Shown here piece by piece: positions 5,409 through 29,550 of a stretch of DNA of 64,000 bases. Each line of letters starts with the position of its first letter. The first letter of the stretch is position 1. The DNA comes from Oscillospiraceae bacterium (lineage in GTDB: Bacteria; Bacillota; Clostridia; Oscillospirales; Ruminococcaceae). The DNA is taken from positions 4,878 through 68,877 of the forward strand of contig JAZQIL010000183.1 in assembly GCA_045541055.1 (NCBI GenBank). Reading direction: 5' to 3'. A program made the position numbers and the translations under genes. A model generated the notes under the pieces. That model was not told where the DNA came from. It did not search any database and worked only from the letters and a program-made list of their open reading frames with translations.

Positions 5409-5446
5409 AAAAACTCTGCAATTTTTCATGCAGAGTTTTTCTTTTT
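5409..5446 (+). terminator. Intrinsic terminator of the aro/DUF4364 unit
   Basis: CTCTGCA(5414-5420)/TGCAGAG(5429-5435) hairpin followed by TTTTTCTTTTT. Confidence 0.6.
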
Positions 5447-5460: not shown

Positions 5461-5492
5461 AGAAAAACCTCCTTTTTACGGGAGGTTTTTCA
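5461..5492 (-). terminator. Intrinsic terminator ending the scaffoldin locus
   Basis: On the minus strand, AAAACCTCC/GGAGGTTTT hairpin followed by a U-run, 23 nt after the stop of the 2249-aa gene. Confidence 0.65.
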
Positions 5493-5514
5493 GATATCAC
5501 TGTAAATTTACAGA

Positions 5515-8500
5515 TTATTCCTTACCAGTCATACCATTAAATTCGCCAATTTCCTTTGTATACTTCGGAAGCGGGCTTGTTAATGTGTCATACCAGTTCG
5601 GGTCGTTACCAGCACCCTGGTTAGCAGCGTATACGAGCATGAAGCCAGCATCGTTTGCACGCAGAGGTGAGTTCACGGTTTCGGAAATTGCATCAACTGC
5701 ACCATTGGAAGTAGCACCATGGTCTTCAGATTCGCCGTTGACATCGCTCAGGAAGTATACGAAATCTTCCAGAACAATCTTAGCATTTACTGCTTCTTCC
5801 AGTTCAGATAATTTCAGCTCTTCTTCTGTAATATCTTCAGCAAGAATCTTTGCTTCATTACCTGCACCGAAGTTCGCAGCATATACCAGAACGGATGCAG
5901 CATCCTTGGAGTTTACAACACCGTTCAGCGTTGTATCGCCCTTTACACCGATGTAAACAGTTCCTGTTACAGCTGCTGCATCATCTGCAAGCTCTTCTGT
6001 TACATTGCCGTTTTCATCTACATTGACAAACTTCCAGTCAGGTGCATTTTCCATGTTAGCATAATCTGCATTCACAGGAACAAATTTCAGTGTACTCTTG
6101 AAGTATGCATCATGTTTATTGCTGTTTGCATTGGCAACGATATAATCTCTGTACTTATCGGGTACCATTTCAGGGAATTCGTTTTCAAAGACAGCCTTCG
6201 GATTATTCAGGTCTTTATTCACCAGTTCAAAATCAACCAGTTCATTGACAGTAGACCAGTCGCTGACATGCGGATTTTCAGCAGTATTATCACTGTAGAT
6301 TTCACGTCTCTTCAGTGTACCTACTTCAATCAGGTCATTCTTCAGGTCAAACGGTCTGTTGTCATGTGAGAAGTAGAACTTCTTCTTGCCCTGAATATTG
6401 TACTGATACTGAACAACGGTAGGAACAACGTCTTCCGCCAGAACTTCAATATAGCCATCTACTTCAGTAACAGCAACTTTATTGTCGTTGACTTTGATTG
6501 CTTCTACTGTGTCGTTTACACCAGGTTCTTTGAAGGTGATTTTGTAGACATCAGCTGCTGTACCTTCTGGAACGTCAAAGTTCAGATATACAAGAATAGA
6601 GTTATTTGCAGCCTGTTCTTCATCTGCTGCACCAGCAAGTGTACCTGCAAACTGATTTTCAGTACCTTCTGTGATGTTCATCAACTTGTAAGAAGTACCA
6701 AGCGTAAAGCCAGTATACTTCGGACCTTCTTCGCCAAACTGGAAGTCAATATCAAACTTGAAGGAGTTCAGTTTCAAAGCTTCCAAATCTTCAGCAGTAA
6801 TTGTAATCGGAACGGAAACAGATGTGCCAGCATGTGTACTCTTGTTACCAATTTCCCATGTTGCTGTAAGGTCGCTGATTACTGGAGGCAATGTGTCAGA
6901 TTCAGTAGGAACTGTTTCAGAGCTGTCTTGTGTCGGCTCTACAGAAGGCTCAATGCTTTCATTTGTCTGGTCAGCAGTTTCGGAAGTATCTTCTGTAGAT
7001 TCAGAAGCCGGTTCACTGGAGGGTTCTGTAGATTCAGAAGCCGGTTCACTGGAAGGTTCTGTAGATTCAGAAACCGGTTCGCTGGAAGGTTCTGTAGATT
7101 CAGAAGCCGGTTCACTGGAAGGTTCTGTAGATTCAGAAGCCGGTTCACTGGAAGGTTCTGTAGATTCAGAAGCCGGTTCGCTGGAAGGTTCTGTAGATTC
7201 AGAAGCCGGTTCGCTGGAAGGTTCTGTAGATTCAGAAACCGGTTCGCTGGAAGGTTCTGTAGATTCAGAAACCGGTTCACTGGAAGGTTCTTCAGAAGAA
7301 GGAGCAATGACTTCAATCCAGCCAGGCTGCTTTTCAGGTGTCAGTTCAGCCATGTTAATGTCATAAACAGACAGGTCTGCAAAGGTCAGGTCATACTTGC
7401 CCGGTTCCATCGGAGCTGTGAAGGTTACATCAAATACAGTTGCGCCATCTTTGGAAAGTGCAATATTTTCTTTTACAGTTGTATTTGTCGCTGCAAAAGT
7501 CATGTTGTCAAGATTGGATACAAATTCCAGACCAGCATAAGCATCACCGTTTGCTGCTGCTGTACCATTGGTTAAGCCGGCAGCCAGACCCATCTTCATG
7601 ATGTAGCTGTTAATACCGTTCTTGTCACCCTTTACAGTAACAGGAATTGTAACGGTTGCACCAGGCTCTACAGTTGCTGTACCAATAATCCACATACCAG
7701 CATCGCCGATTTCAATTGATTCTTCTGTGCTTTCGGTAGGAGCTTCTGTACTTTCGGTGGGCTTTTCTGTGCTTTCAGCAGGAGCTTCTGTACTTTCAGT
7801 AGGAGCTTCTGTACTTTCAGTAGGAGCTTCTGTACTTTCTTCAGTAGCTTCACTGGTAGGAGCAATAACTTCAATCCAGCCAGGCTGCTTTTCAGGTGTC
7901 AGTTCAGACATGTTAATATCATAAACAGACAGGTCTGCAAAGGTCAGGTCATACTTGCCAGGTTCCATCGGAGCTGTGAAGGTTACATCAAATACAGTTG
8001 CACCGTCCTTGGAAAGTGCAATATTTTCTTTTACAGTTGTGTTTGTACCTGCAAAGGACATGTTGTCAAGATTGGATACAAATTCCAGACCAGCATAAGC
8101 ATCGCCGTTTGCTGCTGCTGTACCATTTGTTAAGCCATCAGCCAGACCCATCTTCATGATGTAGCTGTTAATACCGTTCTTATCACCAATTACAGTAACA
8201 GGAATAGTGACAGTTGCACCAGGTTCTACGGTTGCTGTGCCAATTACCCACAGACCAGCATCACTAACTTCACTAGGTAAAACTTGTTCACTGGTTTTTT
8301 CAGTAGTTTCAGTGGGCTTTTCTGTGGTTTCAGTAGGCTTTTCAGTAGGAACTTCTGTGCTGTCCGCAATCTTTTCAGTAGACCTTTCTGTAGTTTCAGT
8401 AGGAGCTTCTGTACTTTCTTCAGTAGCTTCACTGGTAGGAGCGATAACTTCAATCCAGCCGTTCTGCTTTTCAGGTGTCAACTCAGACATGTTAATGTCA

Positions 8501-11500
8501 TAAACAGACAAGTCTGCAAAGGTCAGGTCATACTTGCCAGGTTCCATCGGAGCTGTGAAGGTTACATCAAATACAGTTGCACCGTCTTTAGAAAGAGCAA
8601 CATTTTCTTTCACAGTTGTATTTGTACCGCCAAATGTCATGTTGTCAAGATTGGATACAAATTCCAGACCAGCATAAGCATCACCGTTTGCTGCTGCTGT
8701 ACCATTTGTCAGACCGGCAGCCAGACCCATCTTCATGATGTAGCTGTTAATACCGTTCTTGTCGCCCTTTACAGTAACAGGAATGGTGACAGTTGCACCA
8801 GGTTCTACGGTTGCTGTGCCAATAATCCACATACCAGCATCGCCGATTTCAATCGTTTCTGCTTCTGAAGTTTCTTCACTGGAAGGAGCGATAACTTCAA
8901 TCCAGCCGTTCTGCTTTTCAGGTGTCAGTGCAGACATGTTAATGTCATAAACAGACAGGTCATCAAATGTCAGGTCATACTTGCCCGGCTTTGTCGGTGC
9001 TGTGAAGGTTACATCAAATACAGTTGCGCCGTCTTTAGAAAGAGCAACATTTTCTTTCACAGTTGTGTTTGTACCGCCAAATGTCATGTTGTCAAGATTG
9101 GATACAAATTCCAGGCCAGCATAAGCATCGCCATTTGCTGCGGCTGTGCCGTTTGTCAAACCAGCTGCCAGACCCATCTTCATGATGTAGCTGTTAATAC
9201 CGTTCTTGTCGCCTTCTACAGTAACAGGAATGGTGACAGTTGCACCAGGTTCTACAGTTGCTGTACCGATAATCCACTTGCCAGCATCACCAACTTCAAC
9301 TGGAATTGACTCAGTTGTATCATCTACAACTTCAATCCAGCCGTTCTGCTGTTCAGGTGTCAGTGCAGACATGTTAATGTCATAAACAGACAAGTCATCA
9401 AATGTTAAGTCATACTTGCCCGGCTTTGTCGGTGCTGTAAATGTAACATCAAATACAGTTGCGCCGTCCTTGGAAAGGGCAACATTTTCTTTCACAGTTG
9501 TATTTGTACCGCCAAATGTCATGTTGTCAAGATTGGATACAAATTCCAGACCAGCATATGCATTGCCATTTGCTGCGGCTGTACCGTTTGTCAGACCAGC
9601 TGCCAGACCCATCTTCATGATGTAGCTGTTAATACCGTTCTTGTCGCCTTCTACAGTAACAGGAATGGTGACAGTTTCACCCGGTTTTACAGTTGCTGTA
9701 CCGATAATCCACTTGCCGGCACTTTCTGTAGTCGGAGTTTCATCTACAACTTCAATCCAACCATTTTCCTTTTCAGGAGTCAGTTCAGACATGTTAATGT
9801 CATAAACAGACAGGTCATCAAATGTTAAATCATACTTGCCAGGTGCTGTCGGTGCTGTAAATGTAACATCAAATACAGTTGCGCCGTCCTTGGAAAGTGC
9901 AATATTTTCCTTCACGCTGAAGTTTGTACCACCAAATGTCATGTTGTCAACATTGGAAGTAAAGTCAACAGAAGCATACGCATCTCCGCCGGAAGCAGCA
10001 GTTGCATTTGTCAGTCCTTCTGCTAAGCCCATCTTCATGATGTAGCTGTTAATACCGTTCTTATCCCCTTCTACAGTAACAGGAATGGTAACAGTTGCAC
10101 CGGGTTTCACGGTCTTTTTACCGATAATCCACTTACCAGCATCACCGACTTCAGGCTTATTTTTCACCTGAATCCAGCCATCTTCCTTGGAAGGAATCAG
10201 CTGATTCATATCAATGTCTTCGAGGTCAATATCTGCAAACTTCAGGTTATACTTTGTACCTGGTGCAGCATCGGACGGAACTTCAAATTCCATATAGAAT
10301 ACATCGCCGTCAGCAGCAACAATATTCTTCTTCTGGTCGGAATTTGTACCGCCAAATGTCAGATTATCTTTATTTGCCTGGAAGCTGAGTTCAGAATAAG
10401 CAGAGCCAGCAGTTGCACCAGTAGCTTTCGGACCAGCGTCCTGTGTAATCTTTACAAGGTAGCTGTTCAAACCGTCTTTATCGCCTTCAACAGATACCGG
10501 AACTTTTACAGTTTCGCCGGGTTCTGCTTCTACCTTGCCGATAACCCACTTTGCAGCAGTATCTTTCTGATTGTGAACGAATTCTTCGTCAACAACTTCA
10601 ATATAGCCATTTGTTGTCTTTGGAACAAGCTTGGTCATATCAATGTCATAAACAGAAAGGTCAGCAAATGTTAAATCATATTTGCCGGGAGCTGTCGGAG
10701 CTGTAAAGGTTACTTCAAATACAACTGCATCATCTGCTGCAACAATATTCTGTTTTTTGCTGTTATTTGTACCAGCAAAAGACATATTGTCAGTATTGGA
10801 TACAAAGGCTAAGTCAGCGTATGCACTGCCGGCAGCAGCAGCTGTGGCATTAGATAAGCCCTTTGCCAAGCCCATCTTCATGATATAGCTGTTAATGCCG
10901 TCTTTATCGCCCTTTACAGTAACAGGAATGGTAACAGTTTCGCCCGGTTTTACAGTCTTATTACCAATAATCCATTCAGCATCAATTTCTTTCTGCTGTT
11001 CTGTGAATTCAGTTGTTTTCTGAGTTTCGGTCTGCTTCTGAGTTTCGGTCTGCTTCTGGGTTTCAGTTGGCTTTTCTGTAGATTCGGTTGTCTGACCACC
11101 AGGAATTGTGATAGAACCAGCAGTTAAAGTAATGTCTTTATAAACATTCTTTTCATAGTCAGCGAACTTATAACCTGTAGAAGCAAATGTAATCTTATAA
11201 GTAGTGCCAGGGACAAATGTATCTATTGTTGTGCCTTCTTTTGGAATAAACTGAAGCTGAACAGCAGATGCACCATCAGCAGCTTTGTCATTGCCTTCGC
11301 CATTGAAAGAGATAGCAATGTCACCAGTTTCCAGATTCGGCTGAAGTGTACCAATCTTAGCATAACCGCCGCCGTCTACTACATCATAGAGTTCAAACGG
11401 ACAGCTTGGGTCAGAAATTTCCTTGCCATCAACTAAAATCTGGAACTGCGCACCATAGAGACCAGGGTCATTATTTACAAAAATATCAACATCAACTTCA

Positions 11501-12264
11501 TCTTTAGAAAGGTCTTTGGGAGTATATTCCACATCTGCAATATCCCATTCATAACCCTTGGAAGCGGCAGGTTCTGTTTTATCAGTTGTTTTCTGAGTTT
11601 CAGTTTGCTTCTGAGTTTCAGTCTGCTTCTGTGTTTCAGTCGGCTTTTCCGTAGATTCGGTTGTCTGACCACCAGGAATCGTGATAGAACCAGCTGTCAG
11701 AATAATATCTTTGTAAACATTCTTGTCATAGTCAGCGAACTTATAGCCTGTAGAAGCAAAGGTTACTTTATAAGTTGTACCCGGTACATAGTCTACACCT
11801 TCCTTAGGAATCAGCTGGAGCTGTACAGCAGCTGTACCATTTGCAGCCTTATCATTGCCTTCACCAGTGAAGGAGATAGCAACATCACCTGTGTCAAGGT
11901 TTGGCTGAAGTGTGCTAATTTTGGCATAACCGCCACCGTCTACTACATCATAGAGTTCAAACGGGCAGTCTGGGTCAGAAAAGTCCTTGCCGTCAATCAG
12001 AATTTTGAACTGTACGCCATAAGTACCAGGGTCGTTGTAAACGTTAATATCAAGGTCGACTTCGTCCTTAGCGATATCCACAGGTGTATATTCTACATCT
12101 GCGATGTCCCATTCGTAACCCTTGTCATGTGCAGAAGTGTCATTTGCAGCTGCAATCACTGTATCCACTGGTGTCAGGGCATTCAAAGCCGAAGCCGGAA
12201 GTACACCAGTCGCCATGGAAGCACACATGCACAACGCTGTCAATGCAGATAATATTTTCTTCAT
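5515..12264 (-). CDS. Giant cellulosomal scaffoldin (ScaB-like): signal peptide, 11 cohesin modules, X module, C-terminal dockerin
   Basis: 2249-aa ORF starting with signal peptide MKKILSALTALCMCASMATGVLPASA. Contains 2 modules starting GYEWDIADVEYTP, 8 modules starting W(I/V)IG...PG.TVT(I/V)PV and 1 divergent module starting TWEIGNKSTHAGTSVSVPI. The C-terminus has paired Ca-binding-like segments (NGVVNSKDAASVLVYAANFGAG ... ANDAGFMLVYAANQGAGN). Confidence 0.9.
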   Translation of the reverse strand: MKKILSALTALCMCASMATGVLPASALNALTPVDTVIAAANDTSAHDKGYEWDIADVEYTPVDIAKDEVDLDINVYNDPGTYGVQFKILIDGKDFSDPDCPFELYDVVDGGGYAKISTLQPNLDTGDVAISFTGEGNDKAANGTAAVQLQLIPKEGVDYVPGTTYKVTFASTGYKFADYDKNVYKDIILTAGSITIPGGQTTESTEKPTETQKQTETQKQTETQKTTDKTEPAASKGYEWDIADVEYTPKDLSKDEVDVDIFVNNDPGLYGAQFQILVDGKEISDPSCPFELYDVVDGGGYAKIGTLQPNLETGDIAISFNGEGNDKAADGASAVQLQFIPKEGTTIDTFVPGTTYKITFASTGYKFADYEKNVYKDITLTAGSITIPGGQTTESTEKPTETQKQTETQKQTETQKTTEFTEQQKEIDAEWIIGNKTVKPGETVTIPVTVKGDKDGINSYIMKMGLAKGLSNATAAAAGSAYADLAFVSNTDNMSFAGTNNSKKQNIVAADDAVVFEVTFTAPTAPGKYDLTFADLSVYDIDMTKLVPKTTNGYIEVVDEEFVHNQKDTAAKWVIGKVEAEPGETVKVPVSVEGDKDGLNSYLVKITQDAGPKATGATAGSAYSELSFQANKDNLTFGGTNSDQKKNIVAADGDVFYMEFEVPSDAAPGTKYNLKFADIDLEDIDMNQLIPSKEDGWIQVKNKPEVGDAGKWIIGKKTVKPGATVTIPVTVEGDKNGINSYIMKMGLAEGLTNATAASGGDAYASVDFTSNVDNMTFGGTNFSVKENIALSKDGATVFDVTFTAPTAPGKYDLTFDDLSVYDINMSELTPEKENGWIEVVDETPTTESAGKWIIGTATVKPGETVTIPVTVEGDKNGINSYIMKMGLAAGLTNGTAAANGNAYAGLEFVSNLDNMTFGGTNTTVKENVALSKDGATVFDVTFTAPTKPGKYDLTFDDLSVYDINMSALTPEQQNGWIEVVDDTTESIPVEVGDAGKWIIGTATVEPGATVTIPVTVEGDKNGINSYIMKMGLAAGLTNGTAAANGDAYAGLEFVSNLDNMTFGGTNTTVKENVALSKDGATVFDVTFTAPTKPGKYDLTFDDLSVYDINMSALTPEKQNGWIEVIAPSSEETSEAETIEIGDAGMWIIGTATVEPGATVTIPVTVKGDKNGINSYIMKMGLAAGLTNGTAAANGDAYAGLEFVSNLDNMTFGGTNTTVKENVALSKDGATVFDVTFTAPMEPGKYDLTFADLSVYDINMSELTPEKQNGWIEVIAPTSEATEESTEAPTETTERSTEKIADSTEVPTEKPTETTEKPTETTEKTSEQVLPSEVSDAGLWVIGTATVEPGATVTIPVTVIGDKNGINSYIMKMGLADGLTNGTAAANGDAYAGLEFVSNLDNMSFAGTNTTVKENIALSKDGATVFDVTFTAPMEPGKYDLTFADLSVYDINMSELTPEKQPGWIEVIAPTSEATEESTEAPTESTEAPTESTEAPAESTEKPTESTEAPTESTEESIEIGDAGMWIIGTATVEPGATVTIPVTVKGDKNGINSYIMKMGLAAGLTNGTAAANGDAYAGLEFVSNLDNMTFAATNTTVKENIALSKDGATVFDVTFTAPMEPGKYDLTFADLSVYDINMAELTPEKQPGWIEVIAPSSEEPSSEPVSESTEPSSEPVSESTEPSSEPASESTEPSSEPASESTEPSSEPASESTEPSSEPASESTEPSSEPVSESTEPSSEPASESTEPSSEPASESTEDTSETADQTNESIEPSVEPTQDSSETVPTESDTLPPVISDLTATWEIGNKSTHAGTSVSVPITITAEDLEALKLNSFKFDIDFQFGEEGPKYTGFTLGTSYKLMNITEGTENQFAGTLAGAADEEQAANNSILVYLNFDVPEGTAADVYKITFKEPGVNDTVEAIKVNDNKVAVTEVDGYIEVLAEDVVPTVVQYQYNIQGKKKFYFSHDNRPFDLKNDLIEVGTLKRREIYSDNTAENPHVSDWSTVNELVDFELVNKDLNNPKAVFENEFPEMVPDKYRDYIVANANSNKHDAYFKSTLKFVPVNADYANMENAPDWKFVNVDENGNVTEELADDAAAVTGTVYIGVKGDTTLNGVVNSKDAASVLVYAANFGAGNEAKILAEDITEEELKLSELEEAVNAKIVLEDFVYFLSDVNGESEDHGATSNGAVDAISETVNSPLRANDAGFMLVYAANQGAGNDPNWYDTLTSPLPKYTKEIGEFNGMTGKE
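5518..6420 (-). other. X module plus atypical dockerin with a long insert (approximate bounds)
   Basis: The region from VVQYQYNIQGKKKFYF to the C-terminus has two dockerin repeat segments separated by about 60 aa. This resembles the X-dockerin arrangement described for R. flavefaciens ScaB/CttA. Confidence 0.6.
6426..6875 (-). other. Eleventh, divergent cohesin-like module (approximate bounds)
   Basis: LTATWEIGNKSTHAGTSVSVPITI...NSFKFDIDFQF...FAGT...LVYLNFDVPEGTAADVYKITF...VDGYIEVL keeps the cohesin strand pattern. It is clearly unlike the other ten modules. Confidence 0.6.
7001..7290. repeat. 33-bp in-frame tandem repeat, about 9 copies, encoding the PSSEP(A/V)SESTE linker
   Basis: The unit ttctgtagattcagaagccggttcactggaagg recurs head to tail. 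The translation shows nine PSSEP[AV]SESTE units. Confidence 0.95.
7305..10985 (-). repeat. Array of eight B-type cohesin modules; the five nearest the C-terminus (about 7305-9715) are near-identical at the DNA level
   Basis: The landmark atgttaat(g/a)tcataaacagaca(g/a)gtc recurs near 7352, 7911, 8491, 8937, 9372 and 9792. Aligned by eye, the units differ by scattered substitutions only. Confidence 0.9.
11100..12130 (-). other. Two A-type cohesin modules separated by a TETQKQ-repeat linker (approximate bounds)
   Basis: Two copies of GYEWDIADVEYTP...DPG.YG.QF.IL(I/V)DGK...CPFELYDVVDGGGYAKI...GTTYK(V/I)TFASTGYKFADY.KNVYKDI.LTAGSITIPGG. The same module occurs once in the 641-aa protein. Confidence 0.7.
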
Positions 12265-12311
12265 TGCACGTATTTCCTTTCTGAAATATAAATTTTCAGG
12301 ACTTTAAAACC

Positions 12312-12338
12312 GTGTTCAGACGGAATCCGCCTGAACAC
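12312..12338 (-). terminator. Weak hairpin between the ScaA-like and ScaB-like genes (possible partial terminator or processing site)
   Basis: GTGTTCAG(12312-12319)/CTGAACAC(12331-12338). On the minus strand it is followed only by GGTTTTAAAG. Confidence 0.35.
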
Positions 12339-12372
12339 AGTTCGTAATTTTTGGAAAAATCCTGTAGGGTAA

Positions 12373-14298
12373 TTAAGCAGTCGGGAGGGAAGCAACCAGA
12401 CCAATCAGGTACTTCAGAATTTCAACGGAGTCAGCACCAGTCAGGTCAGCCTTCTTGGTATCAACAACGTCTTTGGTCTTATTACCAGCGCAGTTTGCAA
12501 CTTCCATCTGGTTTTCATTCAGAGTCTGGTTGTCATAACCTGTGAGATATCTGTTGAGCATAACGATATCAACGAGTTCAACCTTGCCGTTCTGGTTTAC
12601 GTCACCGTAGAGGAGGTCACCATCATCTCCTGATGCAGGAGCCTTGGTTTCTGTAGGTGTTTCCTTGGTTTCTGTAGGTGTTTCCTTAGTTTCAGTAGGT
12701 GTTTCCTTGGTTTCTGTAGGAGTTTCCTTAGTTTCTGTAGGTGTTTCCTTAGTTTCTGTAGGCTTGGTTTCTTCTGTAGCTTCTGTTGTATCTTCGCCGC
12801 CCGGAATCTTGATAGAACCAGCTGTCAGAACGATATCCTTGTAAACGTTCTTGTCATAGTCAGCGAACTTGTAGCCTTCTGTTGCAAATGTAACCTTGTA
12901 AGTAGTGCCAGGTACAAATGTTTCAGCTGTTACGCCTTCCTTCGGAATGAACTGTAACTGTACAGCAGCTGTACCATCAGCAGCCTTGTCATTGCCTTCA
13001 CCGTTGAAGGAAATAGCAATGTCACCAGTGTCGAGGTTCGGCTGAAGTGTACCAATCTTAGCATAACCGCCGCCGTCTACTACATCATAGAGTTCAAACG
13101 GGCAGCTCGGGTCAGAAATTTCCTTGCCATCAATCAGAACCTTGAACTGTACACCATAAGTACCAGGGTCATTGTAAACGTTGATATCAACGTCAACTTC
13201 GTCCTTGCTCATATCAACAGGTGTATATTCTACATCAGCGATATCCCATTCATAGCCCTTGTCATGGCTTGCTTCTGAAGGCTCTACCTTTTCAGTAGGA
13301 GTTTCCTTGGTTTCTGTAGGAGTTTCCTTGGTTTCTGTAGGTGTTTCCTTGGTTTCAGTAGGAGTTTCCTTGGTTTCTGTAGGTGTTTCCTTGGTTTCTG
13401 TAGGTGTTTCCTTGGTTTCTGTAGGAGTTTCTTTAGTTTCTGCCTGAGCATCGCCAACTACGATAGTGATACCAGACATGCTAGCAGGAACAACAACATC
13501 CTTTGTACCTACGTTTACGAAGGAAGAAGTAGTTTTGCCATACTGCTGATGGTCATAGGATTCAGCATAATCTACAGTGTAAACACCGTCTTTGATATCC
13601 TTGTCGAGTTCAATTGTAAATTCTGTTACAGGGAAATCATCGGACTTTGCACCGAGGAATGCAGCAGTATCCTTTGTTGCACCATCGCCCTTACCGGACA
13701 GATTGTACATCCAAATCCAGAGCAGTACTTCAGGACCTGTGTAAGTATCAGCCCATGCCCATTCAGAGCTGTGAACGTATGTGATAGAGCTTGTATTGTC
13801 AGCATATGTGCCTTTTCTTGAATCAACATAGCCAAATGCACTAACAAAGCGGTCTGCTGTAAAGTCACCGGATTTTGCAGTGTAAGTAGCTTCTGCATCA
13901 CCTGCTACAGCCTTGCTGAGGTTTGCACCACTCTGGCCGTCGCCACTGGGGTCATGCTGAATGTGAACGTTCTTGCCGTCAACTTCTACCAGACCGCCAA
14001 CGGACTGTACAGACGGGCTGGAAACATCTGCTACCATGTAAGCATCAATACCGATTTTTGCACCAGCTGCATCTGCTGCGCTTGCAAATGTGATGGTCTT
14101 GCCATCTTCGGAAACTGTGAACTTAGCATCCTGTGCCTTCTTTGTGATTGTGCCGGATACATCATAATAGGAATCCGGATTCACTCTCATAGTAAAAGCG
14201 ATATCGCTTGGACCATAAACAGCAAACGCAGACATTACGCTTGCAGACATACTTGCTACCATTGTGGCAGCTGTCAGTGCAGAAATTACCTTCTTCAT
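12373..14298 (-). CDS. Scaffoldin (ScaA-like): signal peptide, unassigned ~260-aa N-terminal domain, A-type cohesin, C-terminal dockerin
   Basis: Signal peptide MKKVISALTAATMVASMSASVMSAFA and two KETPTET-repeat linkers. The cohesin module is almost identical in sequence to the first two of the 2249-aa protein. Dockerin: GDVNQNGKVELVDIVMLNRYL...GADSVEILKYLIGLV. Confidence 0.88.
   Translation of the reverse strand: MKKVISALTAATMVASMSASVMSAFAVYGPSDIAFTMRVNPDSYYDVSGTITKKAQDAKFTVSEDGKTITFASAADAAGAKIGIDAYMVADVSSPSVQSVGGLVEVDGKNVHIQHDPSGDGQSGANLSKAVAGDAEATYTAKSGDFTADRFVSAFGYVDSRKGTYADNTSSITYVHSSEWAWADTYTGPEVLLWIWMYNLSGKGDGATKDTAAFLGAKSDDFPVTEFTIELDKDIKDGVYTVDYAESYDHQQYGKTTSSFVNVGTKDVVVPASMSGITIVVGDAQAETKETPTETKETPTETKETPTETKETPTETKETPTETKETPTETKETPTEKVEPSEASHDKGYEWDIADVEYTPVDMSKDEVDVDINVYNDPGTYGVQFKVLIDGKEISDPSCPFELYDVVDGGGYAKIGTLQPNLDTGDIAISFNGEGNDKAADGTAAVQLQFIPKEGVTAETFVPGTTYKVTFATEGYKFADYDKNVYKDIVLTAGSIKIPGGEDTTEATEETKPTETKETPTETKETPTETKETPTETKETPTETKETPTETKAPASGDDGDLLYGDVNQNGKVELVDIVMLNRYLTGYDNQTLNENQMEVANCAGNKTKDVVDTKKADLTGADSVEILKYLIGLVASLPTA
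12645..12775. repeat. 21-bp in-frame tandem repeat (about 6 copies) encoding the KETPTET linker
   Basis: The unit ggtttctgtaggtgtttcctt repeats head to tail. Confidence 0.9.
13294..13440. repeat. 21-bp in-frame tandem repeat (7-8 copies) encoding a second KETPTET linker
   Basis: The unit gtaggagtttccttggtttct repeats head to tail. It is the same repeat family as 12645-12775. Confidence 0.9.
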
Positions 14299-14417
14299 AA
14301 CTAATTAATTCCTTTCTGTTTTAGTGGTCAGACGTTTGTCGCCGTCTGCCAGATAAATAATTTTTTTCCTAAGATGTCTCAACAAAAGATGTCAGAATTG
14401 GCGGACATTTTTTAAAA

Positions 14418-15257
14418 TCAAAGGTCAGCTTCTGTAATCATGCCAACAATCAGTTTCAGAACAGACATAGATTCGCTGGAATCCGGCTTGCTGTTGCCAT
14501 TGAAGTCAATGTTCTTGAGACCTTGTTCAGTCAGATTTTCCTTACCCATGATTGCCTTATTGATACTGATAACGTCAAGAATATCTACTTCACCGTTGCA
14601 GTCAGCATCACCTTTCTTACCTGTAGCAGGAGCTACATCTGTAGGCTTCTGTTCGGTAGTATCTTCAGCCTTACCAACAACAACTGCGCCGTTTGTAGAC
14701 TTTACAGCATAACCTGTAATTGTGCCGTCAGCACTCATTGTACCGATGTTGATATCGCTGTTTGCTTTGCCTGAACCGTCATAGGTTTCACGGCTGATAG
14801 CCTGGAACTTAATGTCGTAAGTACCATCTTTTGTGCCGTCTTTTACTTTACCGTTCAGTGTCAGGAACACACCGTCTTTTGTTACCCAGTAAGTGCTGTC
14901 ATCTAATGCAACACCATAAGTAACAGTAACAGTACCGTCTACGGAATAGTCAGCATCAAAAACGGTAACACCTTCAAAGCCTTCTTTTGCAGAAGCACCA
15001 GTATTTACGATTGCACCAGCTTCTGCACCAGTAATTGCAATTGCAGCAGAATCATAGGTCAGTTCAAATTCAACAGCATTCACACCAGCAGCAGGAACAC
15101 CGCTCAAACTAATTGCCATTGTAAAATCAGAGCCCGCAGTTGCTTTCACCTTTTCTCCGCTTACGGTAACAGTGTCAGCAGCAAAAACATTTTGTGCTGC
15201 GATGGTGGTCAACATGGAAACGGCAGCCAAAGCGGCAGCGATTTTCCTTACTCTCAT
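14418..15257 (-). CDS. Adaptor scaffoldin (ScaC-like): signal peptide, one cohesin, one dockerin
   Basis: MRVRKIAAALAAVSMLTTIAAQNVFA, then the cohesin pattern (VKATAGSDFTMAISLSGVPAAGVNAVEFELTYDSAAIAI...GTYDIKFQ). Dockerin: GDADCNGEVDILDVISINKAIMGKENL...FNGNSKPDSSESMSVLKLIVGMI. Start set at the ATG at 15257, preceded by GAAGGAGG. The ORF-track start at 15410 lies inside the predicted promoter. Confidence 0.88.
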   Translation of the reverse strand: MRVRKIAAALAAVSMLTTIAAQNVFAADTVTVSGEKVKATAGSDFTMAISLSGVPAAGVNAVEFELTYDSAAIAITGAEAGAIVNTGASAKEGFEGVTVFDADYSVDGTVTVTYGVALDDSTYWVTKDGVFLTLNGKVKDGTKDGTYDIKFQAISRETYDGSGKANSDINIGTMSADGTITGYAVKSTNGAVVVGKAEDTTEQKPTDVAPATGKKGDADCNGEVDILDVISINKAIMGKENLTEQGLKNIDFNGNSKPDSSESMSVLKLIVGMITEADL

Positions 15258-15381
15258 AATTGTCTTTCCTCCTTCATTTGTTTGGAAACATAAAATTAAA
15301 TCATACGTGTATATAACGGGTGGAAGAACTTCCTTCCCTATTATATTCTGTGACAGGACTGCCCCACATCTACTTATTGTT

Positions 15382-15410
15382 ATTATAGGACAAAATATCA
15401 CATAAGTCAA
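15382..15410 (-). promoter_or_regulatory. Sigma-A-type promoter of the scaffoldin locus
   Basis: On the minus strand, TTGACT (15410-15405), 17-nt spacer, TATAAT (15387-15382). This implies a 5' UTR of about 120 nt. Confidence 0.6.
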
Positions 15411-15730: not shown

Positions 15731-17083
15731 TTAATCGTCATCATTCTCATCATCATAATCATCATCGTAATCATCATCGTCTTCGCTGACAGTACCGGCA
15801 TGTCTGGTATAATTTCTCCGGAATTCTTCGGGAACGTTTTCTTCTATAATTGTATCAATGACACCCCAGCTCCATTCTTTGTGCGTACCGCTGGGTGCAT
15901 AGGGAAGGTAATGGTTTTCCACAAGTTCGTCTGTATACATATCATAAGGGTATACACGGACATTTGTCATATCAGAATCATAATGTGTGATAATCGGTGT
16001 CACACCAGCATCTTTAATTGTAATATTGCCTTCGGTATCACGGCAAATATGAAATTCTCCCAGTCCGCCGACTGCATTGAAATTATCTGTCTGACCGGAA
16101 ATGAAATTTCCTAATGAATAAAATACAAAGCCTTGTGTGCCGTCTGCTCTGGTTAAATACTCCATAGACTGGAGTGTGTGAGGCCCTGTGCCAATAATCA
16201 CATCTGCGCCCCAGTCTACCAGCTTCTGAGAAATTTCCTTCACAGAATCTTCAATTTCATGAGTATCTTCTTCGCCCCAGTGCATGGATACCACAACACA
16301 ATCCGTTTGTTCTGCAAGTTCCTGCACCTGTGAACGCATCAGTTCTTCATCTGCCATATACGGAATAATCAGCTCTGTATCTTCCGGCAAAACATAACCG
16401 TTTGTATGGTCTGTATATCCAAGCCAGCCAATTTTTAAGCCTTCTTTTTCTGTAATGCGATAATTATTCATATCTTTCTCATTACGATACGTTCCTAAAA
16501 CAACTACATTTCTGTTAGCTTCCTGAATCTTGTCCCAATAGTCCAGCGTATATTCAATTCCTTCTGTGCCTTTGTCCAGTACATGATTATTCGCCATATT
16601 GAACACATCAAAGCCAATATCTACTAAATTATACCCCAGTTCCACCGGAGAATTGAAATTTAAATTCGAGCCGGATAATTCTAACTTTCCGTCACAAATT
16701 AAAGTTTCCTGATTCACAAATGCTAAATCTGCTGCGGCAATTCTGTTTGCAATGTTCTGATAGCAATAGTGAAAATCATAAACAATTCCGTCTGCTGCAT
16801 ATTTAGAAGCCGTTTTATAAACACAGGTATGAATTAAATTATCTCCCGCTGCAACAACGCTTACTTCTGCCGGCTGAAACAATGGTTCTGTAGGCGGTTC
16901 TGTTTCTGTTGGAATCCCCACTGACTCCATATCAATTACATTATAACTTTCCTTTGTCTTATCCAATGCCGGTGCAGCTGGTGCAGAATAATTCCCTGAC
17001 TGCATCGGAATACTGCTGGAACAGCCAGCAAGCGAAACCATCAAAACAGCTGCTGTCAATATCATTGTTTTACGAAATTTCAT
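15731..17083 (-). CDS. CapA-family (PGA_cap metallophosphatase-like) lipoprotein with a poly-acidic C-terminal tail
   Basis: Lipobox in MKFRKTMILTAAVLMVSLAGCSS. Motifs VVAAGDNLIH, FVNQE, FNMANNH and VSMHWGEE. C-terminus EDDDDYDDDYDDENDDD. An ATG two codons upstream (17089) is an alternative start. Confidence 0.8.
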   Translation of the reverse strand: MKFRKTMILTAAVLMVSLAGCSSSIPMQSGNYSAPAAPALDKTKESYNVIDMESVGIPTETEPPTEPLFQPAEVSVVAAGDNLIHTCVYKTASKYAADGIVYDFHYCYQNIANRIAAADLAFVNQETLICDGKLELSGSNLNFNSPVELGYNLVDIGFDVFNMANNHVLDKGTEGIEYTLDYWDKIQEANRNVVVLGTYRNEKDMNNYRITEKEGLKIGWLGYTDHTNGYVLPEDTELIIPYMADEELMRSQVQELAEQTDCVVVSMHWGEEDTHEIEDSVKEISQKLVDWGADVIIGTGPHTLQSMEYLTRADGTQGFVFYSLGNFISGQTDNFNAVGGLGEFHICRDTEGNITIKDAGVTPIITHYDSDMTNVRVYPYDMYTDELVENHYLPYAPSGTHKEWSWGVIDTIIEENVPEEFRRNYTRHAGTVSEDDDDYDDDYDDENDDD

Positions 17084-17231
17084 ATTCATTTCCCTTCTAA
17101 TTTTGAAAAATTTTAATTATTTATATTATACCACAAATTATGATAAAATGCAACTATTTTTTTCACATTCTTGGCGAAAGAACTGCATAATTTTTAAAAA
17201 GCCGGACATGCTAATTCAGGAGGTGAACCGC

Positions 17232-18680
17232 ATGACAAAAAATCTTTCCGGCACATTGGAAGAAATGCTTGCTGATGTCCGTACTATCTGTGCAAACAGT
17301 TCAGATATTTTAATCAACAGAATTACAATAGGAGGGATTTCCTGTGCTTTACTTGGCTGTGAGGGCATGTTGTCCACTGCCATTATGACAGATTTAATTA
17401 TCCGGCCATTAATAGAAACTCCTCCCCAAAAAGACAGCAATCATTTATTTCAACATATCCAGCAACATTTATTATTATCTCTTGACAGACCTGTTGTCAG
17501 AAACTACGATGATTTATTTTGTTTTTTATACTCTGGCTTTGCAGTACTTCTGGCGGAAGGTCAGAATATTGCCCTTGCCTACGGTGTACAAGGCTATGAT
17601 AAAAAAAGTATCAGCGAACCTTCCGGAGAAGCCAATTTATTCGGCGCACATGACGGCTTAACAGAAACCGTCCGTACAAATATGTCTCTTCTCCGCAGAA
17701 GAATGAAAACGCCCCTCTTGAAATTTGAACTTTCCAAAGCTGGAAAATTAAGTCAGACAGATATTTGTCTTTGCTGGCTGACAGACAGAGTTCCTCCGCA
17801 ATTACTGTTCCAAATTAAAAAAGAATTAACCTCTACTGAACTGGATACAATTCTTTCTACAGGCTATTTACAGCCGTTTCTTGAAAAGTGCAGAGGGAGT
17901 TTGTTTGACAGTGTCAGCTTAAGTCAGCGACCTGATGTCCTTTGTTCAAAACTTCTGGAAGGCAGAGTCATTCTGTTAATAGACGGCACACCATTTGCTT
18001 TGGTCATTCCCAAATTATTTATTGAAAATTTTCAGACTTTAGACGATTATAATCACAAGCCTTACTATGCTGCATTCAGCAGATGGGTGAAATACAGTGC
18101 ATTTTTTATTGCTGTCTTATTACCAGCTTTATATATTGCTGTCAGTATGCACCATCCGGAACTTTTAAACAGCACTTTACTTTTTATCTTAACAGATGCA
18201 GAACAGAAAGCACCTCTTTCACTGCCCACTGAAACAATTTTTGTTTTGCTTATGTATGAAATCATTCGGGAAGCAGGGCTTCGCCTTCCGAAATCTGTCG
18301 GCGGTGCAGTCAGCATTGTATCTGGTTTAATTATTGGTGATGCGGCTGTCAGTTCAGGTCTTATCAGCACACCAATGCTCACCGTCACGGCTATTTCAGT
18401 AATTGCCGGATTTGTGACACCTGATTTAAATGCACCTGTTACAATTATGAGATTATTATTTATTCTGACGGGCGGTTTATGGGGGCTATTTGGAATCGGA
18501 CTGCTTGGCATGGCAATGCTTTATAATCTTTGTGCAACGGAAACATTCGGCTTTCCGGTCACTGCACCATTAGCACCTTTTTACAGCCGTGCCATGCGTG
18601 ATGTCGCTACCAGAGTTAATTTTCACAGAATGCAGCTTGGTAATTTCACTGTGGAGGAATATCATGAGCAAAATTCATAA
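17232..18680 (+). CDS. Spore germination protein, GerA family (A subunit)
   Basis: LLEGRVILLIDGTPFALVIPKLFIENFQTLDDYN and the C-terminal TM block are typical of GerAA/GerKA. Start at the ATG at 17232 after AGGAGG. Confidence 0.85.
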   Translation: MTKNLSGTLEEMLADVRTICANSSDILINRITIGGISCALLGCEGMLSTAIMTDLIIRPLIETPPQKDSNHLFQHIQQHLLLSLDRPVVRNYDDLFCFLYSGFAVLLAEGQNIALAYGVQGYDKKSISEPSGEANLFGAHDGLTETVRTNMSLLRRRMKTPLLKFELSKAGKLSQTDICLCWLTDRVPPQLLFQIKKELTSTELDTILSTGYLQPFLEKCRGSLFDSVSLSQRPDVLCSKLLEGRVILLIDGTPFALVIPKLFIENFQTLDDYNHKPYYAAFSRWVKYSAFFIAVLLPALYIAVSMHHPELLNSTLLFILTDAEQKAPLSLPTETIFVLLMYEIIREAGLRLPKSVGGAVSIVSGLIIGDAAVSSGLISTPMLTVTAISVIAGFVTPDLNAPVTIMRLLFILTGGLWGLFGIGLLGMAMLYNLCATETFGFPVTAPLAPFYSRAMRDVATRVNFHRMQLGNFTVEEYHEQNS

Positions 18681-19683
18681 TCATCAGCTGACTGCAATTT
18701 TATTTCTTTCTGGTGCGTGGTCAGTGATTTGTATCCCCTCACTTTACGGAAACGGGCAAATGACCGGAACAGCTTTCGCCTGTCTGCTTCAAATTTTATT
18801 ATGTCTGCCCATGTTAGCACTTCATTCAGGCACTTTCACAAACCAGATTCAAAAGCATAAATTATTAGGCATTCTTTATATTTTATTTTTCCTGATTTGT
18901 GGTGCAAATGGTTTCGCTCAGTTATGGGAAGCTGCACCGCCTCAGCTTCTGCCCTCTTCCGGAAAATTAACAGCTGCTGTGTTAATCGCTCTGACCTGTT
19001 TTTATACAAGTTCTGCCGGATTAAGAGCCACTGCAAGAGCCGCCCCCATTGTCATGGGATTATTTATCATTTCACTGCTTGTTTTAATTCTAGGAGCTTG
19101 GAAAAGAGCTGATTTAAGCCGTATTTCCTTTCAAACAGAAAACTTTCTCCCCAGTATCAAAACTTATTTTTCTTTAAGCGGTGAACTTGCTGCTGTCTGG
19201 ATTTTAACAGACCATATCCGCAATCATCATAAATTCAGTGCTGTAAATTTCTATTTAATTGCAAAAGCTTTATTTTGCATTTTCATTTTATTTTTCAGTA
19301 TCAGCGCAGGCGGAAGGCTGATTCATTTAAATGGCTATCCATTTTTCACGCTGACAGCCCTTTCCCAGCCTTTACAAGGTCAGAGAGCAGATGCCTTATA
19401 TATTTTAGTATTTGTCATGCTTCACATTATGCATACAACTTTACAAACCGGCATCGTGGAGCATATCGCTGAACAAATGTATCCTATTGCTGAAAAATGG
19501 TCTGCTCCTGTTTCTTTAATCTTCATGTTAATTCCGGCTTACTTCTTTAAAAGTGACATGCTGGAAAATATCATTTTCTGGTCACTGCCAGTTTTTATAT
19601 TTTTCATTCCCCTATACCTCAGAATCCGGCAGTTTTTCCGGAGTATTCAGAAAAAGGAGCAAACGCACTATGAAATGTCTTAA
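18664..19683 (+). CDS. Spore germination protein, B subunit (spore permease family)
   Basis: About 10 predicted TM helices. The ATG at 18664 follows GGAGGA and overlaps the preceding stop. Position is between the A and C subunits. Confidence 0.75.
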   Translation: MSKIHNHQLTAILFLSGAWSVICIPSLYGNGQMTGTAFACLLQILLCLPMLALHSGTFTNQIQKHKLLGILYILFFLICGANGFAQLWEAAPPQLLPSSGKLTAAVLIALTCFYTSSAGLRATARAAPIVMGLFIISLLVLILGAWKRADLSRISFQTENFLPSIKTYFSLSGELAAVWILTDHIRNHHKFSAVNFYLIAKALFCIFILFFSISAGGRLIHLNGYPFFTLTALSQPLQGQRADALYILVFVMLHIMHTTLQTGIVEHIAEQMYPIAEKWSAPVSLIFMLIPAYFFKSDMLENIIFWSLPVFIFFIPLYLRIRQFFRSIQKKEQTHYEMS

Positions 19684-20572
19684 ATTTTTACTGCCTTGTA
19701 TTTGTATATTCTTCACTGGATGCAGTTCTGAAATGATTTCCGACAGACTTTACACACAGTCTGTCGGGTTCACCTGTGACGGGGAAAATTTAAGCTTTTA
19801 CACAGAAGACTTTCATCAAACAGTTTCTTTTCCTGTGGAAGGGGTCAGCATTTCAGAAGTTTTAAGACAGGAAGAAGCCTCTAATGGCGGAAAAGTGTTC
19901 ATTGGGCATACAGAATTATTATGCCTTGACGGTACTTGCACTTTAAATCCGGCAGAAGAATTGCTTTTTGATAACGGTCTTTCCCCTGCCTGCAAAGTCC
20001 TTTATGCGAAACCGGAAGAATTCTTTCAAAATCCGGATAATGCTTCTTTCATTCATGTCATTCGCATGTCAGAACAAAATGGTTTGCTCAGTACAACTGA
20101 ATTAGCTTCCGCTTTAAGCGAATGGCATGGCATCTGGGAAACTGCTTTGCTTCCCATGCAGAAAAAACAGCAAACTGTTCCGGCTTTGGTATTTCTTCAT
20201 AAAGACGGCAATTTTAAAGAATTATCCGATTCTGCTTCCAAAGGCATGTACTGGCTGAGAAGAAATTCCGGCAACTTTCATAAAACCCTTCAAACTCCTG
20301 ACGGCGAAAAAGATATTTTAATCAGAAGCTGCCGTATCGAAAAATCAATTCAGAATCAAGAATTATTTTATCACGTCATTGTCAGAACTGGTACTCCTGC
20401 ATTAAATACACTCCTTCAGGAAGAAATCGAAATGCAATGCCAAGCTGCTATCTTTGAAATGCTTTCCGCTAAAGCAGACGTTATCGGAATGCAGGATTTA
20501 TTTGAAAGTCACGGCATTCAGCCAGATAAAGAAATGAACCTGAAAATCAATTTAACAGTTACTGTAAATTAA
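19670..20572 (+). CDS. Spore germination lipoprotein, Ger(x)C family
   Basis: MKCLKFLLPCICIFFTGCSS lipobox. It is the third gene of the gerA-type operon and overlaps the B-subunit stop. RBS AAGGAG. Confidence 0.75.
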   Translation: MKCLKFLLPCICIFFTGCSSEMISDRLYTQSVGFTCDGENLSFYTEDFHQTVSFPVEGVSISEVLRQEEASNGGKVFIGHTELLCLDGTCTLNPAEELLFDNGLSPACKVLYAKPEEFFQNPDNASFIHVIRMSEQNGLLSTTELASALSEWHGIWETALLPMQKKQQTVPALVFLHKDGNFKELSDSASKGMYWLRRNSGNFHKTLQTPDGEKDILIRSCRIEKSIQNQELFYHVIVRTGTPALNTLLQEEIEMQCQAAIFEMLSAKADVIGMQDLFESHGIQPDKEMNLKINLTVTVN

Positions 20573-27574: not shown

Positions 27575-28294
27575 TTATTTTCTTAAATACGTTTCAATAT
27601 CTTCTTCTCCCCCTGCCCCTGCAAAAGCAGCATATCTTAAAATTCCTGCTGCATCAGAAGCATTCACAAAACTGTCATGATTCACATCTGCATAATATTT
27701 TTGCATTCGGTTCAGAATTTCTTCACTTCCTGCACCCTGACAGGCCGCATTCACCAGCACTAATGCCGCATCTTGTGCATTTGTGCTTATGTCCCTGTTG
27801 ATATTTCCGTAAGTATACAATGGCATTAAATCTTTCCCGTCTGTAAATATCTGCACCCAGTAAATACCATCTGTACCCTGTGCAACCCCTATTCCAATCG
27901 CTCCAAACGATTCGTGAAGAATGTTGTCACGATGATGTTCTGAATTCATCCAGCCATTTACAACTGCTTGCTCATTCTTAAAACCAGCAGCAATATTTTC
28001 GCCTACTTCCCAGTAAGTACCGCCTAAATCTGTCACTACTGTAAAACCTCTTCTGCCGTCCGGCCGTTCATGAGAAAAATTTTTTACAATTTCCTCCGCC
28101 CGAATCTGTGCAGCCTGATTCAGCAATTCCGATTCAGAAAGCGCATTCAAGCCGTATAAAGCCCTTTGTTCATTGACAAGCATCACAACTTCATCTTTTT
28201 GATTCTGATAAGAATCTTCTGCTTTTACAGGCATCACTGCCAAGCCTGAAAAAAGTACAGCAATCACTGCAATGGCAGCTTGCTTTTTTTTCAT
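27575..28294 (-). CDS. Secreted CAP/SCP-domain protein with a C-terminal dockerin-like module
   Basis: Signal peptide MKKKQAAIAVIAVLFSGLAVMPVKA. CAP-like motifs (VNEQRALYGLNAL, GENIAAGF, VNGWMNSEHHRDNIL, FGAIGIG). C-terminal paired segments: NAQDAALVLVNAACQGAG and DVNHDSFVNASDAAGILRYAAFAGAG. Start set at 28294 after AGGGGTGA. Confidence 0.75.
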   Translation of the reverse strand: MKKKQAAIAVIAVLFSGLAVMPVKAEDSYQNQKDEVVMLVNEQRALYGLNALSESELLNQAAQIRAEEIVKNFSHERPDGRRGFTVVTDLGGTYWEVGENIAAGFKNEQAVVNGWMNSEHHRDNILHESFGAIGIGVAQGTDGIYWVQIFTDGKDLMPLYTYGNINRDISTNAQDAALVLVNAACQGAGSEEILNRMQKYYADVNHDSFVNASDAAGILRYAAFAGAGGEEDIETYLRK

Positions 28295-28338
28295 AGTCAT
28301 CACCCCTGATAAATTACAAACCACAGCCAGCAAATATC

Positions 28339-29409: not shown

Positions 29410-29550
29410 TTTCAAAAACCTCCTGTATATTTGAAATAATTACTAATTTTATCATAGCAGATATTTCCGGAAAACACAAGCATTTTTTCTGTTCAAAAAA
29501 AAAATCAGCTGTCTGCACAAATTGGCTTTTTAAAATTTTTGCATATCTTA

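Follow-up and report, generated by a model that had tools for sequence, protein, structure and literature searches.

How is a cellulosome held at the cell surface when the gene cluster that encodes its scaffold ends without an anchor? In Ruminococcus flavefaciens strains 17 and FD-1 the core of the cellulosome is encoded as scaC-scaA-scaB-cttA-scaE, and ScaB is tethered through its X-dockerin to the cohesin of the sortase-anchored protein ScaE. Cellulosomes of the R. flavefaciens type have been recognized by this five-gene cluster as their signature, and scaC has served as a phylotyping marker. The question is raised by a 64-kb stretch of DNA (the window) from an uncultured ruminant-gut relative of Ruminococcus (Oscillospiraceae, ~40% G+C). 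A first-pass annotation had described three consecutive minus-strand scaffoldin genes in this window, followed by a terminator instead of cttA and scaE, and had concluded that adhesin and anchor are uncoupled from the locus. Our analysis indicates that the locus encodes, with high probability, the scaffold half of a cellulosome of the R. flavefaciens type, in a lineage-typical variant whose anchoring pair, in relatives, is displaced elsewhere and not lost.

The three open reading frames (ORFs) were reproduced as described (15257–14418, 14298–12373 and 12264–5515). They are adjacent and co-oriented in the order scaC-scaA-scaB, and each gene has a module-specific best match in the PDB. The genes, their modules and the structures at the end of the locus are the following.

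14418–15257, minus strand: scaC-like adaptor scaffoldin of 279 amino acids, with signal peptide, cohesin (14658–15176) and dockerin (14421–14621).
12373–14298, minus strand: scaA-like scaffoldin of 641 amino acids, with signal peptide, N-domain (13444–14220), class I cohesin (12802–13278) and dockerin (12376–12621).
5515–12264, minus strand: scaB-like scaffoldin of 2249 amino acids, with signal peptide, 11 cohesins, X module (5995–6441) and dockerin (5518–5994).
Cohesins of scaB, minus strand: B1 (11674–12141) and B2 (11101–11577), class I; B3–B10 (7309–10989), class II; B11 (6442–6873).
5462–5491, minus strand: intrinsic-terminator-like hairpin with a U-run and an 11-bp stem, 24 nucleotides past the scaB stop codon.
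5409–5440, plus strand: terminator-like hairpin with a T-run and a 12-bp stem, directly 3′ of the DUF4364 gene, belonging to the converging aroB-aroA-aroC-DUF4364 unit.

The hairpin at 5491–5462 folds at −19.6 kcal/mol (z −4.2), and 0 of 200 shuffled sequences fold as well. Annotation of the flank bears out the convergent unit of aroB, aroA, aroC and a DUF4364 gene that meets the 3′ end of scaB. An end of this kind could in principle be produced by misassembly at about 5461–5515, with cttA and scaE truly following scaB. The repetitive nature of scaB gives some reason for this suspicion: cohesins B6–B10 are mutually 88–97% identical, a tandem array of 435–447 nucleotides runs through the near-identical cohesins B5–B8 (8427–10153), and same-species short-read contigs break inside the gene. 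For the same reasons the number of class II cohesins depends on the assembly. The repeats do not reach the junction but lie upstream of it. The 3′ end of scaB, the terminator and the junction with the DUF4364 gene recur in four independent contigs of the same species (L069, L070, L072 and L073, from two MAGs (metagenome-assembled genomes) of NCBI and from two other assemblies, with identical AroC). The same scaB–DUF4364 junction is found in at least 15 other lineages with X-dockerins that are just 34–58% identical. The artefact explanation is thereby effectively refuted.

An alignment scan for X-dockerins, with one genome per species, returned 58 loci, and their ORFs were labelled with profiles that came from the window and the FD-1 control locus (L054: scaC, scaA, scaB, cttA, scaE). 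The layouts are as follows.

Window-type: PGA_cap, scaC, scaA (carrying the N-domain), scaB and, converging on it, DUF4364-aroC-aroA-aroB; found in 13 species-representative genomes (L012–L016, L018–L023, L025, L027) and the metagenome contigs L007 and L010.
Window-type variant: scaB meets a convergent gene for a GH26-dockerin protein, and the aro genes stand at a greater distance in opposite orientation; L008, L009 and L017.
Flavefaciens-type: PGA_cap, scaC, scaA, scaB, cttA, scaE; 18 loci.

The window-type X-dockerins form one clade. Their carriers, labelled Ruminococcus sp. or Oscillospiraceae bacterium, are MAGs of gut origin (goat, deer, buffalo and others), and the X-dockerins of the species representatives are at most 48% identical to that of the window. 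Both main layouts have PGA_cap 5′ of scaC, and the loci are therefore orthologous, with differences at the 3′ end. Together with the module-specific PDB matches and an N-domain of ScaA common to both lineages, this shared neighbor supports the conclusion that the first three genes are orthologues of scaC, scaA and scaB and keep the R. flavefaciens order. Iterated profiles made from CttA and ScaE of FD-1 recovered both genes in 16–18 flavefaciens-type loci, and found neither in the window or in the window-type loci; in the window, a terminator and the converging DUF4364-aro unit come after scaB. Adhesin and anchor are therefore indeed uncoupled from the locus, but not as a peculiarity of this genome: the three-gene layout is standard for the whole clade, and hence less surprising than it first appeared.

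The window itself does not contain the anchor. Apart from the scaffoldin genes, no ORF of at least 50 amino acids in the 64 kb matches any of five cohesin profiles at E<1, in agreement with the earlier statement that no protein of the window combines a cohesin with a sorting signal. The next 2.9 kb to the left, contained in L069, encode a Hydrolase_2 protein, an NMN transporter and a GH26 protein, and no anchor gene. The first-pass annotation had left the partner of the X-dockerin as either encoded elsewhere or of a different kind, and relatives point to the former: their ScaE-like genes, paired with an X-dockerin gene, occur 9–10 kb away or on other contigs. In each of the window-type loci L007 and L025, a ScaE-like gene is located 9–10 kb beyond scaB, on the same contig but the opposite strand, and the aro genes and an acn-PARG-icd-rex block come before it. 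Its product consists of a cohesin, a Thr-rich linker and an SPKTG sorting signal. On L029, from the same MAG as the scaB locus L020, a second X-dockerin gene is directly followed by a complete ScaE-like gene that faces rex-icd-PARG-acn. The encoded protein has a signal peptide, a cohesin-sized domain, a Thr/Ser linker and an SPKTG tail, and the X-dockerin encoded before it is sister to the window-type ScaB X-dockerins. Further ScaE-like members are preceded by a gene with an N-terminus resembling CttA and a terminal X-dockerin.

The ScaE-like family is a cohesin family by profile comparison (hhalign, 96.7% probability), and its tails match the C-terminus of FD-1 ScaE ('...SPKTGVTGVGVAVAGLAVAVGTAFALKKKED'). 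The NCBIfam model Rumino_NPXTG accepts FD-1 ScaE with 32 bits and scores the database protein P0104 below cut-off at 18.8 bits. The complete ScaE-type architecture (signal peptide, one cohesin, Thr/Ser-rich linker, SPKTG-type signal) can be read in the sequences of the relatives L029, L007, L025, P0091, P0104 and L079–L090, and not among the window proteins. The loci L079–L090 are 12 metagenome loci retrieved with a codon-degenerate DNA pattern for the conserved tail. All 12 are ScaE-like; each of the nine with upstream sequence follows an X-dockerin gene, each of the four with downstream sequence faces rex-icd-PARG-acn, and together they span 40–58% G+C. The recurring unit can be written on one line.

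Anchoring module: cttA-like X-dockerin gene, scaE-like gene, convergent rex-icd-PARG-acn; L029 (1238–2416), L007 (20549–21190), L025 (19977–20795) and L079–L090.

Beyond L007 and L025, this module is conserved in about 20 loci. Within it there is almost no variation in the sortase tail 'SPKTG..(D/S)(I/V)LPIAG.AAAVAVLGGVA', and the cohesin diverges to ~35–45% identity. Conserved composition combined with varied placement identifies the anchoring pair as a stable module with variable linkage to scaC-scaA-scaB. The two placements may also be related by a simple rearrangement: inverting the segment of L007 or L025 from DUF4364 through the cttA-like gene restores scaC-scaA-scaB-cttA-scaE followed by convergent rex, which suggests that one inversion of ~10 kb relates the layouts. 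Three metagenome contigs of low G+C content (L079, L080 and L087; 41–42%) carry ScaE-like genes and are not assignable to the window species. On L079 and L080 the gene directly follows an X-dockerin gene, and the L080 block is not beside aro genes. This arrangement is what the sub-clade of the window would be expected to show.

Several candidates for the ScaE of the window species were rejected. The contigs of P0104, P0105, P0091, P0123 and P0096 have 49–53% G+C and therefore come from other organisms, and P0052 and P0060 are of the callidus type. Synteny around HtrA between the window and L074 was uninformative, with proteins that are 41% identical. A protein encoded in the window itself (53130–54032, minus strand) also deserved consideration. 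It is a secreted protein of 300 amino acids with Pro/Thr-rich repeats, linkers, an FN3-like domain of ~100 amino acids ('ISWTAVEGATGYEIQ') and the C-terminus 'SPKTADSANIPAVAGAAAVALLAGVAVQRKKK', and its SPKTA tail resembles the ruminococcal SPKTG sortase signal of ScaE. It too was rejected as a cohesin anchor: none of the five cohesin profiles matches this protein, and Rumino_NPXTG does not recognize its tail. As a separate observation, the database protein P0122 (259 amino acids) joins a ScaE-like (E29-type) cohesin to a cargo-type dockerin, which replaces the sorting signal; such a protein would be an adaptor that uses the cohesin type of the anchor.

The part of the window that should meet such an anchor is the C-terminus of ScaB. 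Pfam finds seven cohesin stretches in this protein; reading of the translation and all-against-all BLAST gave 11 cohesin-sized modules in three classes, the same count as in the first-pass annotation, and the X module and dockerin follow as proposed. B1 and B2 are 79–85% identical to the ScaA cohesin, B3–B10 make up class II with B4 as an outlier at ~50%, and B11 is unique, with 21–27% identity to the other modules. The terminal dockerin matches 4IU2_B, 4IU3 and 4WKZ (CttA X-dockerin) at ~2e-6; the entries 4IU2 and 4IU3, by their titles, show the CttA X-dockerin with the ScaE cohesin (PMC5934362). Profiles of the CttA and ScaB X-dockerins of R. flavefaciens match the window ScaB at ~1e-27, and the motifs FYFSHD and IGVKGDT are kept. 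With its X module and, behind it, an enlarged dockerin that contains inserts, the C-terminus corresponds to the CttA/ScaB type (group 4). Pfam CttA_N (PF18244) has no match to the X module at E ≤0.01. The best PDB match of B3 is 5N5P_A (ScaB cohesin 5; 4e-6). ScaB of FD-1 carries ScaA-like cohesins followed by cohesins that bind the ScaA dockerin (PMC4081043, PMC5934362); 5N5P is the complex of CohScaB5 with DocScaA, and the CttA X-dockerin has been described bound to the ScaE cohesin (PMC5934362). The window ScaA dockerin and B3 are homologous to DocScaA and CohScaB5 (3.9e-6 and 4e-6) and are a predicted pair.

The linkers between the modules show a further feature. Those at 6991–7291, 12642–12762 and 13290–13442 are encoded by in-frame tandem DNA repeats with periods of 33 and 21 nucleotides (for example TETKETP). 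At these repeats, as at the array at 8427–10153, copy number is likely to vary and short-read assemblies are likely to break.

Module B11 is specific to the clade. In window-type ScaBs 0–5 amino acids lie between the divergent last cohesin and the X module, whereas 160–480 amino acids separate the last detected cohesin from the X-dockerin in the flavefaciens type. An alignment-based AlphaFold2 (AF2) model of B11 has a predicted local distance difference test score (pLDDT) of 86–94, and cohesins make up most of its top 50 fold matches. The nearest is 5N5P_A (template-modeling (TM) score 0.82, root-mean-square deviation (rmsd) 1.9 Å), and the ScaE cohesin is far (TM ~0.5). We rejected the idea that B11 is an in-line cohesin of the ScaE type, as matches of the ScaE profile to ScaB-like ORFs are summed weak generic matches and the fold is nearest to ScaB cohesin 5. 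In the AF2 model of the C-terminal part of ScaB, the X module is of moderate confidence.

The window encodes two more dockerins that resemble the anchoring dockerin of ScaB. Two adjacent genes (27575–28342 and 28339–29415, both minus strand) code for dockerin proteins with a CAP domain (cysteine-rich secretory protein family) and without an X module. Their dockerins resemble that of ScaB and ScaE-binding R. flavefaciens dockerins (8AJY_B, 9GVB_B), not the common cargo type. By this similarity the CAP proteins are candidates for direct tethering to the cell surface.

These observations bear on the possibility that the window sub-clade has lost the ScaE-type anchor, and that its X-dockerin uses a membrane-anchored cohesin or the B11 module of another ScaB, which would chain scaffoldins. 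Such a scheme would account for a species to which no anchor gene has been assigned and for a clade-specific divergent cohesin fused directly to the X-dockerin; moreover, transmembrane-anchored cohesins have been reported in other rumen Ruminococcus species (PMC13463774). But the X-dockerin has been conserved, with clear homology to the X-dockerins of CttA and ScaB that bind ScaE, the X-less dockerins of ScaB type on the two CAP proteins imply that a matching cohesin exists, and ScaE-like genes do occur on the low-G+C contigs L079, L080 and L087. The fold of B11, like ScaB cohesin 5 and not like the ScaE cohesin, also speaks against a substitute anchor. We consider this loss unlikely.

The first-pass reading of 15257–14418 as cohesin plus dockerin is supported by Pfam (Cohesin 1.9e-14, Dockerin_1 5.5e-5). 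The best PDB match of the ScaC-like cohesin is 5LXV_A, R. flavefaciens 'Scaffoldin C' (E 1.5e-28), and an AAGGAGG ribosome-binding site precedes the ATG of scaC. The ScaC dockerin clusters with cargo dockerins; it is 73–76% identical to the dockerins of the two leucine-rich-repeat (LRR) proteins of the window. For the ScaA-like protein, Pfam detects the dockerin alone, whose best PDB match is the R. flavefaciens ScaA dockerin (5N5P_B, 3.9e-6). Its internal class I module is a cohesin by hhalign against validated cohesins (98% probability, E 2.7e-13); as a control, Pfam also misses the experimentally proven cohesins of ScaA and ScaE from FD-1. The N-domain (amino acids 27–285) had been described as unassigned and still has no assigned fold, but it is shared with R. 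flavefaciens: its profile matches the N-terminus of flavefaciens-type ScaA at 2e-11 to 5e-8. It is therefore a conserved ScaA feature that supports orthology. Comparison of this domain with three cohesin profiles detected no cohesin homology (hhalign 4%, 7% and 1.5%), a profile search of the PDB gave nothing, and a single-sequence AF2 model was unusable (pLDDT 32). The N-domain may be a very divergent cohesin.

By homology with R. flavefaciens, these modules could assemble as follows. Cargo proteins with the common dockerin type, and ScaC via its own dockerin of that type, would occupy the class I cohesins, of which ScaA has one and ScaB two. The cohesin of ScaC would recruit a second class of dockerin, for example that of the GH10/GH43 xylanase described below. 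The ScaA dockerin would plug into the eight class II cohesins of ScaB, and the ScaB X-dockerin would plug into a small ScaE-like protein with a cohesin, a Thr-rich linker and an SPKTG signal, which would tie the complex to the cell wall. The anchoring module would lie outside the operon, inverted at a distance of 9–10 kb in some relatives and unlinked in others. This placement accounts for the terminator that closes the operon behind scaB.

The expression of the locus appears to be more complex than one promoter and one terminator. Three elements precede or separate the genes.

15382–15410, minus strand: promoter-like TTGACT–17 nucleotides–TATAAT upstream of scaC, with 11 of 12 consensus positions.
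15310–15347, minus strand: leader block of ATATAAT, a variable hairpin and GTTATATA, ~50–90 nucleotides 5′ of the scaC start codon.
12307–12343, minus strand: stem-loop with a 17-bp stem and a U-run in the scaA-scaB spacer, a candidate leaky terminator, attenuator or transcript stabilizer.

Promoter-like matches in the region as a whole are not above chance (21 found, 23.3 expected). The sequence TTGACTTATGTGATATTTTGTCCTATAAT, comprising −35 box, spacer and −10 box, is nearly invariant in 10 window-type and intermediate lineages with diverging flanks, and the TTGACT/TATAAT site is absent from flavefaciens-type loci. Given this conservation, the prediction of a promoter is much better supported than a consensus match alone would make it. 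The leader block is common to window-type and flavefaciens-type loci; its consensus fold is weak (−3 kcal/mol), and it may represent either a second −10 box or an RNA structure in the leader. An Rfam scan of the window returned no matches. The scaA-scaB spacer folds at −36.5 kcal/mol (z −5.9), more strongly than the terminal terminator. Its hairpin occupies the same position in all window-type and intermediate loci that were checked. RNAalifold finds 17 pairs, five of them with compensatory double changes, and the compensatory changes extend across 10 lineages. Flavefaciens-type loci have a short scaA-scaB spacer without this 17-bp hairpin. The promoter-like site and the terminator of the first-pass annotation are thus both present, and the former is conserved, but the hairpin that follows scaA, also conserved and stronger than the terminal one, speaks against one simple transcript. 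Transcription is likely to begin at the TTGACT/TATAAT promoter, and the hairpin, as a leaky terminator or a 3′-end stabilizer, probably lowers the level of scaB transcript relative to scaA. More scaA than scaB transcript would fit up to eight ScaA per ScaB.

The conservation of these signals also bears on whether the locus is a decaying remnant that no longer builds a surface complex. The missing anchor genes are all that would suggest decay, and they are nothing specific to it. All three ORFs are intact with a signal peptide and a ribosome-binding site each, the promoter has been conserved together with the hairpin of the scaA-scaB spacer, the window contains genes for seven further dockerin proteins, and the architecture is kept across many species. 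Decay is highly improbable.

We return to a displaced anchoring pair as the preferred explanation, and to what weighs against it. For the window species itself, neither a ScaE-like nor a cttA-like gene turned up in the 64-kb window, in the 2.9 kb to its left or among database matches from its two MAGs, GCA_017542565.1 and GCA_017518625.1; since these MAGs are fragmented, this absence is weak evidence. The relatives with an anchor gene on the same contig (L007, L025) sit in a different sub-clade from the window, and the link between L020 and L029 depends on metagenomic binning alone. The dockerin part of the AF2 model of ScaB is unreliable (pLDDT 30–50). All cohesin–dockerin pairings are predictions carried over from R. 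flavefaciens by homology at low identity, for several modules at E ~1e-6, and the suggested role of the scaA-scaB hairpin derives from its shape and conservation. If these weaknesses were taken at their most serious, the ScaE anchor would be absent or bypassed in the window sub-clade, and the unit of B11 and X-dockerin would provide another form of attachment or assembly, such as head-to-tail chaining of ScaB or a cell-proximal dock for a particular dockerin protein, with the scaA-scaB hairpin as a dedicated control of stoichiometry. We give this combination little chance of being correct.

As a set, the seven further dockerin proteins of the window have dockerin groups like those of R. flavefaciens. 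Besides the CAP proteins, four are non-enzymatic (22492–24117, 26200–27420 and 29601–31133 on the minus strand; 32312–33082 on the plus strand), of which two are BspA-type LRR proteins and two have no assigned function; the dockerins of the latter two are 41–50% identical to that of ScaC. A gene at 55589–59395 (plus strand) encodes a bifunctional enzyme of 1268 amino acids with GH10, two CBM4_9 modules, an internal dockerin, GH43 and CBM6. The nearest match of its dockerin in a ruminococcal complex is the ScaC-bound 5LXV_B.

Upstream of scaC lie the PGA_cap gene and spore-germination genes of the gerA type. Around the cellulosome locus as a whole (16992–20572 and 553–1251) we find GerA, a GerAC-like protein, a PGA_cap-type protein and a SleB-like Hydrolase_2 protein with a Thr-rich linker. 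These sporulation and germination neighbors suggest a spore-forming lifestyle, or its remnants, in this ruminococcal lineage.

The locus is a real and lineage-typical variant of a known system, and there is no evidence of a new attachment mechanism. It indicates that a sizeable clade of uncultured ruminococci from ruminant and other guts, with more than 15 species-level genomes, splits the cellulosome system into a scaffold operon, scaC-scaA-scaB, and a separate anchoring module, with an evolutionary link between the two layouts, because one inversion of ~10 kb would relate them. Genome mining that expects scaE beside scaB would wrongly score such organisms as anchor-less. The terminal unit of cohesin, X module and dockerin, and the intergenic hairpin that may set the ratio of ScaA to ScaB, are two testable features. 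We regard the finding as moderately relevant to cellulosome specialists and useful for genome mining. Among the papers searched, none describes the three-gene layout, the terminal cohesin–X–dockerin unit or the intergenic hairpin.

Three known systems allow comparison. The C-terminus of CipA from Acetivibrio (Clostridium) thermocellus (CohI9-X-DocII in complex with an anchoring cohesin; 4FL4, 3KCP) is similar to that of the window ScaB in that X module and anchoring dockerin stand directly behind a terminal cohesin. Both structures are among the fold matches, with a poor overall fit (rmsd >15 Å) that covers mainly the cohesin part of the model. In contrast to the ruminococcal design, the anchor of C. 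thermocellus uses SLH domains and not a sortase, and its dockerin is of another type.

The closest parallel is R. flavefaciens. Both systems share the order scaC-scaA-scaB with PGA_cap upstream, ScaC as an adaptor of cohesin plus dockerin, and homologous N-domains and dockerins of ScaA. The window ScaB likewise begins with ScaA-type cohesins, continues with cohesins of the ScaB-cohesin-5 type and closes with an X-dockerin that has its homologues in the ScaE-binding type. The two systems also have comparable dockerin groups, and the anchors found in relatives follow the same design of cohesin, Thr-rich linker and SPKTG. The window differs in that cttA and scaE lie outside its cluster; since they are not adjacent, it lacks one defining feature of the five-gene cluster. 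Its ScaA has one recognizable cohesin as compared to two or three in R. flavefaciens, and its ScaB has the extra divergent B11, fused without a linker to the X module. Moreover, the scaA-scaB spacer is longer and contains the 17-bp hairpin, the conserved promoter 5′ of scaC is distinct, and protein identities are low.

The third system is found in relatives of R. callidus. An AlphaFold-based survey of 2026 described sca-like clusters in these organisms, named only ScaB- and ScaC-like proteins as clustered and proposed an LPXTG-anchored ScaE-like protein (PMC13463774). In the complete R. callidus genome (L059), we found no sorting-signal gene within 10 kb downstream of the X-dockerin match. The callidus type differs from the window in that no scaA lies between scaC and scaB, its cohesin groups are undetectable by sequence search and its X-dockerins fall on a separate branch. 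It resembles the window in that ScaC-like and ScaB-like genes are clustered and the ScaE-like anchor is not listed in the cluster. An anchor that is unlinked from the scaffold genes is, in view of this survey, not unprecedented.

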